From Spirochaetia bacterium (GTDB lineage Bacteria; Spirochaetota; Spirochaetia; SP-2023): a stretch of DNA of 64,000 nt. The stretch's first letter is position 1. The number at the start of each line of letters is the position of its first letter. Where the stretch lies: positions 96,001 through 160,000 of the forward strand of contig CBDDCK010000004.1 in NCBI GenBank assembly GCA_965225855.1, in the 5' to 3' direction. Shown here piece by piece: positions 15,001 through 24,000 of the stretch. Made by a program: the position numbers.

Positions 15001-18000
15001 TCCAAAGAATTCACTAGTTTTTCAATATACCAAGCTTCTAGCAACAGAAAATGTAACTTTAAATTTTGAACCAAATGCATTGAAAAAAATTGCCAGCATC
15101 GCCTCGGAAGTCAACGCCAATACTGAAGACATCGGTGCTAGGCGGCTGCATACTGTATTAGAAACATTGCTCGAAGATATTTCATTTCATGCCAGTGATT
15201 GCGTTGGGCAAACAATAACCATTGATGAGGATTTTGTTAGCGATAAATTACGCGATATTGCAACTGATCAAGACCTATCACGCTATATTTTATAATTCCA
15301 ATCAAGAGCGGCTGGAATCGCTTCGTATTCAGTCGCTCTTGATTTTATTGTGCTTGCGGATACATTCCCAATTTTTCCAATAATACTTTATCGCTATTGG
15401 TATTTTGATTATCCGTAGTGAGCAATTTATCCCCATAAAAAATAGAGTTTGCTCCAGCGTAAAAGCAAAGGGCCTGCATTTCTTCCGACATACGGGTGCG
15501 CCCTGCGGATAAGCGAATACGGGAAGCTGGCATCATAATTTTCGCTACGGCAATCGTGCGAATAAAATCAAAAGGATCGACACGAGCTTCTAAATTTAGA
15601 GCACTGGGGGTGCCTTCTACAGGGACTAACATATTGATCGGCACGGATTGTGGATGAGGTTCTAAAGCAGCTAAAGTACAGAGCATAGATGCTCTATCAG
15701 CTACTTTTTCACCCAAGCCAATAATTCCGCCGGTGCATACTTTTACCTCATGTTTTTGCAAACCCTTTAAGGTTTCAATGCGATCTTCATAACAACGGGT
15801 ACTCACGACTTTACTATAATATTCTTTAGACGTATCGACATTATGGTTGTAGTAATCCAAGCCAGCTTCTTTGAGCTCCTTTATTTGGGATTCGCTAAGC
15901 ATTCCCAACGTCATACAAGTTTCCAAACCTAATTCTTTCACACTACGCAAAATTTCGATCAATCGAGGCATATCGCTGTCATCAGGGCTGCGCCAAGCGG
16001 CACCCATACAAAAACGTCCGGCTCCTTGTTCTTTAGCTATTTTGGCCGCTTTTCTCACAGCTCCCACATCGAGTAGACCACTTTCTTCCACTCCACCACT
16101 GTGGTGAGAGCTTTGCGAACAGTAGCTACAATCTTCACTGCAACCACCACTTTTAATATTTAACAAAGTCGAAAGTTGTATTTCGTTGGGGTCAAAAAAT
16201 TGGCAATGCAGTGAATGCGCCCAATGGAGCAATTCCATAAAAGGCCTCTCAAACAAAGCATGGGCTTCGTCTTTGCTCCAATCATAGCGCAGGGTGTCTT
16301 CTATCAAGTTTTCTGCAACATCAATCATAGCTATCTCCTGTTTTTTGGTTTGATATTAGCCCATTGTGCGTTGGTACAAAACAGACCAATCAAAATGGAC
16401 ATGGTTAGGGTGGTTAGATGGAAGGCAATTCGCCTAACGATAAAGTCTTTCAAGGCAAGATAAACTTCTGCGTTATTATCAAAAAAAATAATGCTTATGC
16501 AATATCCATCGACAGATAAACACAGATTTTCGTAAGTATCACAAAAATCGCTCCAAGCTGATTACCAAACTTAATAAAAGAATCACATTCCTTCACAGTC
16601 AAGATCACGAATTTCTTTGTAAAGAAAACGGCCTTTACCGAGCATACTGTGAAGAATCAAAATCATTGGAACGCTACTTTTTGCCTTGGTTCCATAAACA
16701 AACCAACATACATTCTGCAAAGAGTAAAAATATTTTTACACTACAACGCCCCCGTATTGTACTGACAAACAAAGCATGTGTCTGTAGTTTGCTCTGCGGT
16801 AAGTGCTAGATTTGACTATTTCTTTCAGCGTTATTCGCTGTGTATCTCTATATTACAAGTTCTGTAGTATGCTATGGCTTTACGGTTTCACACCAGTTTA
16901 TTTGTTATGCAGTTTAGATGAATGGCAAACTATCTCTTTTAGCAACACGGCTGGCGGAGCAAGTAAGTTTCCCTTAGGTTTCCCTTCTTCAAACTCAACT
17001 TTTGAAGACTCTAAACACCAAGAAATAAAGTCCGGCAACTCAAATAACTTATAGTAAGGCAAACCAGTGACGGCAAACAGCCCCTCTTGCTTACTGCCTA
17101 AAAACCAAAGATGCTGTAATTTTTGCTGAACTTGGTTATTTAATCCGGCTAAAAAATCGCTAGCAAATCGCTCTTGGTGGGTAAACCCATAACTACAAAA
17201 TTGCTGGTAATAAAGTGGCGTTATGAAGTCTTTGCTAAACTCTTCCCAAAAGACCTTTCAAGCAGAAACATTCATTTGCTCCCTAAATTCAGCAAATTTT
17301 ACTAAATTCTCCCGTGTAATTGAACGCTTTTCCATGAACATGACTCTTCTACTCGCACTCTAATATAAATGAACTATAAAGCAAAGCCATCTATTCTAGC
17401 CTGCTAAAATAAAATGGATAATCAAAAACCATCTACAAGTTAGACCCGACTATAACACAGAACAAACTAAATGATCGTTGATATTTTAATTGTATTTAAC
17501 CTATACACATATCAGTTATCGGTGATACACAACCCAATTTAAACTATATTTACTCTGAATATCGGCGATAATTTTTCAAATTGCTATTGAGTATAACACA
17601 ACATTCTTTTTGAAGCCTCAATCAAAAGAAATCGATCTTTAAGATGCCTATATTTATGAAGCCGATGGCAACATTTCCAATATCAATTCGACTTCACCAA
17701 CACTCAATTGCGTTGCCCGAGCAATTTCACTACTACTCCATTTTTTACTATGCAGCTGGACAACGGTATTGCGCACATCACTGTCCATCTTACTTCCATT
17801 ATTCACACCCAGAGAACCTCGTTCATTCGGGCGGTTTTTGCGTACAATCGTTTCAACCGTGTGCAAGTTACTTTGTATATTTTCTGACAATTCCAGCATA
17901 CGAGTTTCGGTTTTAGCGATCCATTCGCGCATTTTATCGATCCCCTGACTGTCTGCATGTAACTCGTTAATAGCTTGTTGCATCTCTTGTAGTTCATCTT

Positions 18001-21000: not shown

Positions 21001-24000
21001 CATCTTGTTCATCTGCCGAGTTACAATCGTCTAACAATTTTGTTAATTTTTCTTTAAGGCCAGCATCTTTTTGAAAAAGTTGTAACAATTGCTCTCGGCA
21101 CTCTTGCGCAATTGCAGCTATTTCACTCTCCTCACCCAGCAAATGGGATTTGTTCAAACCTTGAAAACAAGGATTTACTAAGTTTAAACTCCAAAACAAA
21201 CTAATACCTTTGTCCCAAAAAGCATCAACTTTTTCTTGATCTTCTGGAAAAACTTCACGCAAAACACTGACAAAAGCCCTTTGTAGTTGGCGAATATGCA
21301 ATCCACCACTACAGGCGTGGCCATTGACAAAGCTTTGAACCAAACGCTGATTATATAGGCCACTATCATTAATCTGCCATTCAGCCAAATGAGTAAAACT
21401 CAACTGCCATCTTTCACCCTTTAGATTGCAAGGCTGGTAAAGATAATTTAATTTTCTCCATTGCGGTAGAGTTTTAAATAAATCTCCTATACTTTTTTGT
21501 CTAATGATATGGCTTTGATTTAAATGAATTTCCAAACCCGGATATAAAGCAGCAATTTTACACAATACGTCAAACAATTGTGGAATTCGTATCGATTGTT
21601 TACCAAAAATTTCAGAATCAGGCGTAAAACGAATAAAAGTACCATTTTCCTTATCACATCGGCCACGGCGATCCCTTACAACACGCCCTCCGGAACTTTC
21701 TATTTCAGCAAATTTATGTTCTTGATACGATCGCAGCAAAAAACGACTGCTCAAAGCATTGACTAATTTTAAACCTAAACCACTAAGGCCTTCACAAAAT
21801 TGAATTTCCACACTATTATTTTTTGAGTTTTGCCCTAATTTTTGAATTTTTGTACGCAACTGCGTATGCGGAATGCCCCGCCCATAATCACGAATCGTAA
21901 TGGTTTCAGAACTACAAAGCACGTCAATAATCTTGCCTTGTCCTTTGCTGTATCCTTGAAGGTATTCATCAATACTATTATTGAGCAATTCTTTAAATAG
22001 CACGGTAACACCACTATGCCATGTTTTTTGGTTGCCCAAATTATAACGCAAATTTTGGCTCCCAGGCATATCCGTAATAGAAGTATATAAGTAGTTAGGA
22101 TAATGCTGGCGCAAATGCTCAATAATAGAGCTAGGCCTATTAGCTCTTACGCTGTGGATACCCGATTTAGACACAGCTGCCGTGGAAGCTGGGCTGGAAA
22201 CAGAAGAAGTTTCTGTTTTTAGTGGCACTTTCGGCACTAAAGCTAAAGGGGGCATGACAAAATCCCTACCATGTTCAACGGAAGTATTATCAGAGAGGTC
22301 TTTCATTGTATACTCATCTATTTTAAGAATTAATTGGAAAAATTATCAGGTTGTCTACACAAATTGAATTTAACGAACATCCAGACAAATTTGGCAGATT
22401 GTAAAGGAAAACGCAATAAATGTCATAAAAATTTAAATTGTAGCCAGAAAATAATCAAAAACTTCATAATAAAAACCTTGGCATAATTTTAAATAATAAT
22501 AACTCGGTATTTTTGGAATTCTATTTCATTTACAATTTTTCAATAGATACTTGTCAAAAAATATCAAAAACATTATATTGGTTTCCTTTGAATTGTTTAC
22601 AAAGTTATATACTTTTAGAAACAATTATAATTAAAAAACTGGAGGATTCCATTGATGAAGTATTTACCTAACATTGCAATATTTGCGATGAGTTTGCTAT
22701 CTATTTTTACCAATGTTGCTTGTACTCAAAATGCCAAGCCTAAAAAAATAACAATTGGTTTTATCGGGTCAATGACTGGTGATTATGCCAATTATGGCCA
22801 ATTGCAAAGTAAAGCATTGCAGCTAGCTCTCGATGATTTTAATAAAAATGAAGGTGGTATCGCAGACGCTGCTGTTGAGTTAATAATTGAAGATTCTCAG
22901 GGTAAAGTAGAAAAAGGAAGTATTGCAGCGCAAAAGTTGATCAATGTTGATAAAATTAGTGGTTTAGTTGGCCCTGTTTTTTCTGGTGTAGCTATTGGCA
23001 TAGCTCCTGATTTTCAAAATGCCAAAGTCCCCGTTATTTCTGGTTCTGCAACGACTCCTGACCTAACTGAAATTGGCGATTATATTTTCCGTACAGTCCC
23101 CAGTGATGGCTTGCAGTCTGCAGTTTTAGGCCCTTATATCGCACAAGAACTAGGATATATGACTATGTCTATTATATTTACCAATAATGATTACAGCCAA
23201 TCCCTTGCTGAAAGTGTAACCAAAACTTATGAAAAAACGGGCGGGAAAGTGTTACTAAGCCTTGGTGCTCCTGAAGGTACCAAAGATTTTCGTACCCAAT
23301 TGGCCCAGATTAAAGACATTAAACCGGAAGCCATTTTTCTGCCCAACTATGTTGCCGAATGCGCACAAATCATAAAACAAATGGATGAAATTGGTTTGGA
23401 CATTCCCATTATCAGTGCCGATGGTTTTTCTAATACAGAAATCCATAGCCTGATTGGAAAATTGGCAAACGGTGTTATTTTTTCGGCAAGCCCAAGTAAT
23501 GAATCGGAAAAAGCAATTTCTTTTAGGACAGCCTATAATGCGGAATTTGGTGTCGATCCCGATGACTTTAGTACCAATATTTACGATGCGACAACAATTT
23601 TATTGCGAGCAATGAAAGCTAGTTACAATGAACAAAATAAGATGATTGATGCCGAGGCTTTACGCCTGAACATTCAAAATACCAAGAATTTTGCAGGGGT
23701 ATCGGGTAACATTGAATTTGCTGTTAATGGTGATGTCAAGAAAGGAATTGCAATCAAATCGGTTATTGGAGGCAAATTTGAAACTATAGGCTTATACACG
23801 GTAGAGTCGGGCCAATTGCAGCAATTACATACAGATACTTCATCTGCAAATATACATTCAAAAGATTGAAAGTGCCATAAGCTTAATCATTTATGGATCG
23901 GGAAGAGTCTATAAATCTTTGCATTTTTGAGTTCAATACAATTTTATGCTTCTATTACAATTCACTATCAACGGCTTGTCTATAGGTGCTATTTATGCCC

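Follow-up and report, generated by a model that had tools for sequence, protein, structure and literature searches.

The ATPase subunits of bacterial type II topoisomerases, ParE (here the type of Spirochaetia, Bacteroidota and PVC) and GyrB, carry a GHKL ATPase domain and a transducer domain in one piece, as in their 43-kDa fragments (1s16, 1kij). The QTK loop is described as strictly conserved in type IIA topoisomerases, with its glutamine linked to the regulation of hydrolysis by DNA and its lysine to the gamma-phosphate, and GyrB hydrolysis is reported to require the N-terminal brace of the partner subunit (PMC4159350), just as GyrB dimerization is reported to require Ile10 (PMC4585971). 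MORC-type proteins are described with GHKL and S5-fold domains at the N-terminus that are followed by a long coiled coil (PMC2292703; PMC6892150; PMC4628070), a GhXhhpXXRhl motif in the S5 domain and a restriction-type gene neighborhood, with helicase, nuclease or methylase neighbors in about 70% of prokaryotic MORC neighborhoods (PMC2292703). FipA is described as a 163-aa protein that needs its membrane anchor; its residues G110, E126 and L129 are singled out, the glycine is needed for binding FlhF, and homologs are stated to be absent from spirochaetes (PMC11620751). For SpiroCoCo proteins (NF047514, NF047515), a literature search returned no paper using the name, in agreement with the survey's finding.

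In the 64,000-nucleotide stretch of DNA analyzed here (the window, in whose coordinates all features are given), a single open frame of 1550 aa on the minus strand (17654..22306, gene g00355) encodes a ParE-derived ATPase module, a helical rod and a SpiroCoCo C-terminal domain, without any transmembrane segment (maximum 19-residue hydropathy 1.25, versus 2.37 in the membrane-anchored paralog). The survey had described a ParE-type ATPase and transducer, lacking TOPRIM, joined to a coiled coil ending in SpiroCoCo_C, and this architecture was confirmed: NCBIfam parE matches aa 102-395 (E 6.5e-21), Pfam HATPase_c matches aa 102-230, and SpiroCoCo_C (NF047515) matches aa 1228-1543 over its cut-off of 125 bits, as it does in all three fusion proteins scanned (133.7, 134 and 141.5 bits, the first being this one). 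Pfam Toprim had no match in the fusion protein, and the TOPRIM half of the host's ParE, used as a query, matched only parE and gyrB in its own genome. Promoter and terminator scans stayed at chance level (16 vs 17.7 and 6 vs 4.0), and an expression search listed no RNA data set for the gene.

Several lines of evidence support the ParE origin of the head, its loss of TOPRIM and strong constraint on its ATP site. A profile built from 10 fusion heads alone recovered the 43-kDa ParE fragment 1s16 (E 1.4e-22) and aligned with spirochaete ParE over 316 columns at a probability of 99.9; all 60 PDB matches listed for it are type II topoisomerases, MORC, MutL and defence-system models did not match the head, and a head query of the ESM Atlas returned only GyrB/ParE-type clusters of 348-422 aa. 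Across the four genomes of the genus, the GHKL domain is 72-81% identical, compared with 73-80% for a 130-residue stretch of the genus's own ParE ATPase. A set of 51 ParE/GyrB sequences has 46 invariant positions; 34 of these carry the same residue in at least 90% of the 11 fusion heads, and conservation within the fusion covers 37 of the 46 versus 102 of 266 others (Fisher p 1.1e-7). Identity to the host ParE is only 27-36%, and the stem branch of the fusion heads is very long; three trees were built, none of which settled the donor of the head, and an insert of about 55 aa in the ParE of the genus has no counterpart in the fusion head. An earlier structural model of the head had used an alignment with four ParE rows, and it did not survive restriction of the alignment to 10 fusion sequences (mean pLDDT 44.7), so that the fold assignment of the head rests on sequence profiles.

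The GHKL domain (aa 100-260; 21527..22009) retains its nucleotide pocket, with the ExxxN, DxGxG, GxxGxG and G-T motifs recognizable. Residues E106, N110, D140, G144, G173, G176, G178 and G222 and the lid lysine (K162) are present in 11 of 11 heads, G142 in 10 and T223 in 9; R143 completes the DxGRG motif. The survey's statement that the Glu, Asn, DxGRG and GLxG motifs are kept in every copy, and its mention of the transducer lysine region, thus largely stand, the exceptions being DYARG in place of DxGRG in one genome (G001) and an arginine at K386 in one of the 11 heads. The catalytic Glu, the Mg-binding Asn, DxGRG, the lid lysine, GxxGxG and the transducer lysine are common to the fusion and to ParE/GyrB.

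Other parts of the ATPase machinery have diverged, as the survey had noted for the lid and the strap. Where ParE has the dimer strap YDESxI, the fusion has a variable N-terminal extension (aa 1-56; 22139..22306; 15-27% identity across the four genomes), and both residues equivalent to Tyr5 and Ile10 of E. coli GyrB are lost, the strap isoleucine being found in 0 of 11 heads versus 45 of 47 ParE sequences. The lid glycine that is invariant in ParE remains in one head of 11, and the proline of GIP in six. The helix that opens the ParE ATPase (EHxR..Y, aa 57-72; 22091..22138) is retained, with E63, H64, R66 and Y72 in all 11 heads and in ParE, and the strap-receiving pocket is in this way partly preserved. 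In the transducer (aa 261-430; 21017..21526) the QTK loop keeps its lysine (K386) in 10 of 11 heads and its glutamine and threonine in none. The loss of both strap residues and of the lid glycine means that hydrolysis may be weak or absent. At 67 positions the fusion has a fixed residue that is seldom seen in ParE; aa 185-230 have a mean charge of +4.9 versus +0.4 in ParE, with R188, R213, R216, K219 and R226 as new basic residues of the GHKL domain, and the transducer is near neutral (mean charge -0.4). Compared with ParE, then, the fusion (about 30% identical) lacks TOPRIM, the C-terminal ParE part, the strap and the QTK glutamine, and continues into a rod of about 1060 residues.

The rod begins with an acidic helical region free of proline (aa 431-1227; 18626..21016; 51-61% identity across the four genomes), which over aa 431-1220 has a net charge of -43 and a hydrophobic period of 3.6; over aa 431-1490 the net charge reaches -64. 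The SpiroCoCo_C domain (aa 1228-1543; 17678..18625) follows as a heptad coiled coil (period 3.45), a flexible linker and a helix-turn-helix (HTH). The fusion shares this domain and the long proline-free rod with other SpiroCoCo proteins, and differs from them in its N-terminus: a hydrophobic N-terminal segment is present in all 14 other SpiroCoCo frames whose N-terminus could be seen (1.82-2.76; four further frames with a cut-off N-terminus were left out) and in none of seven fusion proteins tested (maximum 1.56), and SpiroCoCo_N (NF047514) matches the anchored paralog of 893 aa and has no match in the fusion. SpiroCoCo rods over cut-off occur in 112 of 151 Spirochaetia genomes searched. The survey's count of two SpiroCoCo_C genes in congeners and one in other spirochaetes was borne out, with two per genome in 4/4 genomes of the genus and a single one in all 108 remaining genomes that had a match over cut-off (147 searched). 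In a quick tree with a long-branch warning, the fusion tail clusters with the genus's anchored paralog and those of the sister family (SH-aLRT 96); a tail query of the ESM Atlas returned only spirochaete clusters without a name. Judged from these sequence comparisons, the ParE ATPase module occupies the former membrane-anchor position of a duplicated SpiroCoCo protein.

The protein ends in a three-helix HTH of the DUF6115/DUF2802 (FipA-like) type (aa 1509-1545; 17672..17782), within a last 100 aa that are 81-88% identical across the four genomes. The predicted structure of aa 1351-1550 (mean pLDDT 84) places three glutamates and no lysine or arginine on the recognition helix. Below the Pfam cut-offs, DUF6115 matched eight of eight tails and DUF2802 matched four of four canonical SpiroCoCo tails (E 1e-7 to 7e-6); the fusion tail matched DUF2802 weakly (E 0.06 and 0.02; 13.9-15.6 bits vs a cut-off of 33.5), and neither of two anchored paralogs of the genus did. 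By the coordinates of these matches, FipA G110, E126 and L129 align to the G(W), E and L of a SpiroCoCo motif. Like FipA and DUF6115 proteins, the fusion places a small HTH carrying the G...E..L motif after a coiled region, and of that motif it retains E1538 and L1541; in contrast to FipA, the motif glycine is replaced by Lys or Asn in 8/8 complete fusion tails, a residue also absent from 1/30 and 3/18 other SpiroCoCo tails. A gene for an FlhF-like GTPase is present in the host genome, its match of 153 bits falling short of the cut-off of 174. Foldseek gave no match to the tail model at E 0.001 or better, and a wide fold search listed generic coiled coils and the Tn3 resolvase HTH (Z 7.3, rmsd 1.7 over 45 residues), with no FipA-type structure among the matches listed; a literature search on DUF6115 returned nothing relevant. 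Given its acidic recognition helix and its kinship to the FlhF-binding domain of FipA, the tail HTH likely binds protein.

The fusion is restricted to one genus, as the survey had proposed; this genus is likely Candidatus Haliotispira. It occurs in 4/4 genomes, the three congeners having 66-68% identity in the head and frames of 1599-1646 aa, and searches of 305 other spirochaete genomes did not find it: in 300 of the phylum the best match to the head reached 147 bits and 34%, and five further close genomes had only frames of 599-663 aa. The reported 10 fusion proteins were recovered, among 28 database hits rather than 27. A genome-contig scan with a single fusion protein had no match, and a metagenome scan had no fusion among the 80 loci kept. 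As the survey had stated, a normal ParE (C5:618342-620420) and a normal SpiroCoCo protein accompany the fusion, as do ParC, GyrA and GyrB, and the gene surroundings vary between congeners, the neighbors differing in all four genomes. Searches of the literature on Haliotispira and on GHKL with coiled coil, spirochaetes and topoisomerase IV gave nothing relevant, although supplementary domain-architecture tables could list the fusion.

We tentatively favor, at somewhat less than even confidence, a reading in which the fusion is a duplicated SpiroCoCo rod whose anchor was replaced by a ParE ATPase-transducer module, making it a likely cytoplasmic, ATP-switched tether and not a topoisomerase or a DNA-moving motor. 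The ParE module would likely turn a fixed tether into a switched one. The rod may form a parallel dimer up to about 150 nm long that keeps two heads together, in which case the strap would no longer be needed to bring them close. The heads would close on ATP binding and be reopened by slow hydrolysis uncoupled from DNA passage, and the closed or open state would set the grip on a ligand, most likely DNA, through the new basic sheet face. The HTH pair would dock on the same type of partner protein as the anchored SpiroCoCo members do, probably at the pole or flagellar base.

The strongest competing explanation, which we regard as unlikely, is a MORC/SMC-like chromosome organizer, in which two paired heads close on DNA within the transducer cavity, much as ParE captures its transport segment, while the rod takes over nucleoid compaction or positioning from the missing SMC-ScpAB. 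ParE ancestry, the intact ATP site and the basic sheet face are consistent with it, and SMC and ScpA were found in none of the four genomes of the genus (89-94% complete), with SMC found in 9 of 16 other genomes and ScpA in 120 of 151 genomes of the class. However, the fusion is missing from all seven other SMC-less spirochaete genomes tested, both sister-family genomes among them, and SMC loss therefore does not require it; the glutamine switch is lost, the transducer is near neutral, and rod and recognition helix are acidic. Layout is where the survey's idea of a MORC/SMC-like motor holds: GHKL, S5-fold transducer and long coiled coil resemble MORC, paraMORC, MutL and SMCHD1, which join GHKL and S5 fold to a dimerizing C-terminal region. 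The fusion belongs to neither the MORC nor the SMC group. It arose independently from ParE, and no kleisin, helicase, nuclease or methylase neighbors it in the four genomes; SMC, MukB and Rad50 have a split ABC ATPase head with a central hinge or hook, unlike its GHKL ATPase, and SMC, Rad50 and JetC models match only its coiled coil (17-27 bits). DNA-moving activity in particular is not supported, given the missing strap and QTK glutamine in all 11 heads and the acidic rod and recognition helix.

The status of SMC in the genus is an observation in its own right, and one new point favoring an SMC-like idea. Spirochaete SMC queries gave no full-length match in the host's genome. Pfam SMC_hinge was discarded as a test of SMC loss, as it detects SMC in 1 of 151 class genomes.

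Two further explanations seem to us slightly less probable still. The fusion could tether or regulate the host's topoisomerase IV or gyrase, its strapless head pairing with a normal ParE or GyrB ATPase domain that lends the strap, so that the enzyme is parked or dampened at the site bound by the HTH. The partly kept strap pocket (E63, H64, R66, Y72) invites this, as does descent from the genus's own ParE, which is not rejected (one clade, p-AU 0.19), and strap-poor stand-alone ParE fragments arise repeatedly beside full ParE lineages; the low identity to host ParE, the long stem and the 67 fusion-specific residues suggest a new interface instead, and parE lies near the fusion gene in only one of four genomes (about 13 kb away, in G002). 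Equally doubtful is an ATP sensor or structural nucleotide-binding domain, with ATP bound and not turned over and its occupancy controlling assembly of rods into filaments; the lost strap, lid glycine and QTK Gln and Thr and the patchy GIP proline fit, but the general base Glu and the transducer lysine are kept (11/11 and 10/11), and both serve hydrolysis, not binding. Mis-assembly, or a recent accidental fusion in decay, would suit the narrow range of the fusion, which makes up three clusters at 50% identity in a set of 1.84 billion representatives, but is refuted by the congener copies, by 11 different intact heads, down to 51% identical and every one fused, by the lack of any stand-alone form in a set of 7999 candidates (211-713 aa), by strong constraint, and by separate contigs. 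One of these contigs, possibly the origin of this very DNA, covers the stretch without difference, and a diverged one crosses the head-rod junction with 67 differences over 438 bases, which shows that the gene is no assembly artefact.

The survey had also presented as new the co-option of a type II topoisomerase ATPase module outside a topoisomerase in bacteria, and uniqueness in this sense is not borne out. Common among the fusion-profile matches are stand-alone ParE ATPase-transducer proteins that lack TOPRIM and measure about 350-390 aa; they are also seen as three copies in tandem and joined to ankyrin, and in the tree they emerged, in bacteria other than this genus, at least three separate times. 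They share the module and similar losses with the fusion (strap Tyr mostly gone, QTK Gln in 6/25 and Lys in 16/25), partly a selection effect because the set was found with the fusion profile; they differ in having several origins and no rod. Descent of the head from such fragments is not supported: they do not form one clade and were selected by fusion likeness. Two that were scanned matched no named family in NCBIfam, Pfam or PADLOC, and a literature search on stand-alone GyrB ATPases without TOPRIM gave nothing relevant.

In its boldest form, which we consider improbable, the finding would mean that an SMC-less lineage assembled a new chromosome-positioning machine from two older components: a ParE ATP gate, released from DNA cutting, would clamp DNA, and a SpiroCoCo rod 150 nm long, tipped by a FipA-like domain, would link that gate to the pole or flagellar base. 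Such a machine would be a bacterial MORC analog that evolved independently, and it would stand as the most elaborate product of a recurrent and so far undescribed shedding of ParE ATPase modules as separate genes. The analysis also brings to light a broader group of stand-alone ParE ATPase genes without TOPRIM; these have several origins, and databases annotate them as subunits or fragments of topoisomerases. The fusion itself is a clean natural example in which the motor domain of an essential enzyme was copied, stripped of its coupling to DNA passage and fixed genus-wide on a different protein, and its mutable ATPase provides a biochemical handle on the SpiroCoCo rods.

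The fusion gene lies at window positions 17654-22306 (minus strand) as a single open frame of 1550 aa. NCBIfam places parE at aa 102-395 (E 6.5e-21) and SpiroCoCo_C at aa 1228-1543 (133.7 bits, cut-off 125), and Pfam adds HATPase_c at aa 102-230 and a weak DUF6115 at the C-terminal end, with no Toprim match anywhere in the 1550 aa. Full ParE, GyrB, GyrA and ParC are all encoded separately in the host genome, as is a second SpiroCoCo protein of 893 aa with a membrane segment at its start. A public contig matches the whole stretch with 0 differences, possibly being the same DNA, and the head-rod junction is also spanned by a second, diverged contig. 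The open frame, the domain matches and this junction confirm the survey's finding of a ParE-SpiroCoCo fusion, which is a real, genus-wide and new domain architecture. Neither SpiroCoCo nor the fusion was named in the literature searched, which lay outside subscription journals and supplements.

The fusion occurs in 3/3 congeners (head identity 66-68%) and is also encoded in a Candidatus Haliotispira prima record (L152). A search of 300 further genomes from the phylum did not find it: the best match there had 34% identity (147 bits), and the frames among the matches listed, which stopped short of 201 weaker ones, were at most 773 aa; 5 more genomes, 2 of them from the same order, gave only frames of 599-663 aa. 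The genus restriction first seen in 3/3 congeners against 0/37 other genomes thus extends to this larger set. A database search gave 28 matches of 852-2713 aa, not the 27 counted earlier; the 10 fusions among them, a number that stands and takes in the copy in the window, score 402-872 bits, and no other match exceeds 126 bits. A ten-head profile run against 1.84 billion representatives returned three clusters at 656-739 bits, the next match being at 177, and none of 7999 candidates of 211-713 aa was a stand-alone form of the fusion head.

Each of the four genomes of the genus has two SpiroCoCo_C matches above the cut-off, and each of 108 other genomes has one. SpiroCoCo frames are about 1100 aa long in most spirochaetes, about 400 in family f93 and 3831-4815 in family f59 (genomes G336, G305, G399, G380 and G359). 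What we take to be a DnaK-type N-terminus lies within 1.5 kb downstream in 13 of 30 canonical SpiroCoCo loci (L231-L260), in most cases preceded by a GrpE-like gene; the DnaK-type neighbor is missing beside both copies in the genus. Weak false matches to SpiroCoCo models come from two paralogous DKRFEQV heptad-repeat proteins (host contig C5:52904-54568, minus strand, and C5:100413-101168, plus strand), which vary in repeat number, have a C-terminal membrane segment and each adjoin a member of a lipoprotein-like family that is present in several copies and has acidic repeats as well as repeated beta-rich domains. One member of that family lies in the window (28182-30356, plus strand; no significant Pfam or NCBIfam match) and others at C5:54748-56787, 98003-100096, 1027531-1029402 and 1676604-1679405. 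Downstream of an FtsN/RlpA-like gene, the window also encodes a membrane protein of 643 aa (9189-11120, plus strand), which has a long, acidic stretch on the cytoplasmic side and no NCBIfam and no significant Pfam match.

A profile built from fusion heads alone matches the 43-kDa ParE fragment 1s16 (E 1.4e-22), aligns with spirochaete ParE over 316 columns and has type II topoisomerases as 60/60 of the PDB matches listed. Because the head model from a fusion-only alignment failed (pLDDT 44.7), no conclusion rests on head structure. E106, N110, D140, R143, G144, K162, G173, G176 and G178 are invariant in 11 different heads; the motif conservation reported earlier for ten fusions holds except at G142 (10/11). 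T223 is kept in 9/11 heads and K386 in 10/11 (Arg in one). We take GyrB D73, R76, G77, K103 and T165 to be counterparts of conserved head residues. Further counterparts are E. coli GyrB E42, N46 and K337, according to the accessible text of PMC4159350.

Residues 431-1220 contain no proline, carry a net charge of -43 and have a hydrophobic period near 3.6, followed by a heptad period of 3.45 at aa 1231-1490; at the standard helical rise of 0.15 nm per residue, the rod would be up to about 150 nm long. A membrane segment was found in none of 7 fusion proteins tested, whereas all 14 other SpiroCoCo frames covered as far as their start begin with a hydrophobic segment. The fusion is a SpiroCoCo paralogue, derived and without an anchor.

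Conservation is highest over the final 100 aa of the protein (81-88% identity). In the predicted model of aa 1351-1550 (pLDDT 84), a long single helix leads through a loose linker into three short helices, which resemble a resolvase HTH (Z 7.3, rmsd 1.7, 45 residues, by structure search). The third of these short helices, VGEVELILEM, includes three Glu but lacks basic residues, and would therefore be ill-suited to binding DNA. DUF6115 matches 8/8 SpiroCoCo tails compared, and DUF2802 matches 4/4 canonical ones below its cut-off (E 1e-7 to 7e-6). By match coordinates, G110, E126 and L129 of FipA, as numbered in the accessible part of PMC11620751, align with the G(W), E and L of the SpiroCoCo motif. 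The fusion retains E1538 and L1541, whereas Lys or Asn replaces the Gly in 8/8 complete fusion tails; the Gly is present in the anchored paralogue (4/4) and in other spirochaetes (29/30 and 15/18).

Three trees unite the fusion heads as a single clade (100/100) with a very long stem, and none of them places the donor. A common clade with the genus's own ParE is not rejected (p-AU 0.19), although the head lacks that ParE's insert of about 55 aa. The insert, in the ATPase domain, is variable (L010:6343-8421, plus strand; L028-L030); the genus's parE is distant from parC, on separate contigs in the host, and gene order is strongly shuffled among the four congeners (L025-L030 against the host) despite 50-85% protein identity. 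In a quick tree that carries a long-branch warning, the fusion tail falls together with those of the anchored paralogue and of the sister family (SH-aLRT 96), consistent with duplication inside the order.

The co-option of a topoisomerase ATPase module was thought to be unique to this lineage, a claim that fails because TOPRIM-less ParE modules also stand alone in other bacteria. Among 147 non-fusion profile matches and the metagenome loci are many proteins of about 350-390 aa that start with Met and end right after the transducer, none of which reaches 50% identity to any of the 167 full-length ParE/GyrB frames compared. One cluster has 822 members, of which 13 of 15 listed are 351-353 aa, named fragments aside. 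Locus L104 carries three tandem genes (6857-10225, plus strand), beside a Sel1-like repeat gene, and L127 a single one (6917-8002, plus strand), with no TOPRIM half within either locus; P0130 has ankyrin repeats instead of the TOPRIM half. Further examples include P0036, P0038 and P0055; the two proteins of this kind that were scanned match no named family in NCBIfam, Pfam or PADLOC. We aligned 25 stand-alone modules, three of them longer and some known from protein entries alone; in a mixture-model tree, 9 such modules need 7 label changes, at least three forced by well-supported branches, and on these sequences the modules have several separate origins. A literature search aimed at this wider pattern of shed modules found no description of it.

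The MORC-like part of the earlier reading holds for the layout, which resembles that of MORC or MutL as described in the accessible text of PMC2292703. By the tests applied, however, the fusion does not belong to MORC, SMC, FipA or the topoisomerase B subunits. That the fusion is a DNA clamp substituting for SMC is unlikely. Neither SMC nor ScpA turned up in any of the 4 genomes of the genus (89-94% complete), ScpA is present in 120/151 class genomes and SMC in 9/16 other genomes tested; 7 other SMC-less genomes, including both from the sister family, lack the fusion, making the link suggestive and non-specific. Overall, 11 of the 20 spirochaete genomes tested gave no SMC (G000-G003, G357, G416, G305, G336, G380, G148 and G248), all 6 genomes of this order among them, and the same groups lack ScpA.

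Two further readings are less probable again, to the same degree: that the fusion tethers the host topoisomerase or acts as its decoy, and that the head binds ATP without turnover. Of the 46 positions that do not vary across 51 ParE/GyrB sequences, the head retains 34. It has gained 67 fixed residues of its own, which include five Cys as well as a basic group at 188-226. The strap Ile is present in 0/11 heads versus 45/47 ParE, the lid Gly in 1/11 and the QTK Gln and Thr in 0/11; the available text of PMC4159350 ties that Gln to the way DNA controls hydrolysis, and the N-terminal brace to hydrolysis within the dimer, and that of PMC4585971 reports that GyrB Ile10 is required for dimerization. 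Within the fusion, 37/46 ParE/GyrB-invariant positions are conserved versus 102/266 others (p 1.1e-7). Across the four genomes the GHKL domain keeps 72-81% identity, against 73-80% for a 130-residue stretch of their own ParE ATPase whose columns are not exactly the same, and the transducer has drifted more (62-75%, versus 83-91% in ParE).

As judged from sequence, the fusion has a ParE module in place of an anchor, a constrained ATP site and an equally constrained FipA-like tail, and it has lost the parts that couple ATP to DNA passage. We tentatively favor, at somewhat short of an even chance, a reading in which the rods would pair in parallel as a dimer and the paired heads would close and open with ATP, a cycle that may give the protein-binding tip a releasable anchor.
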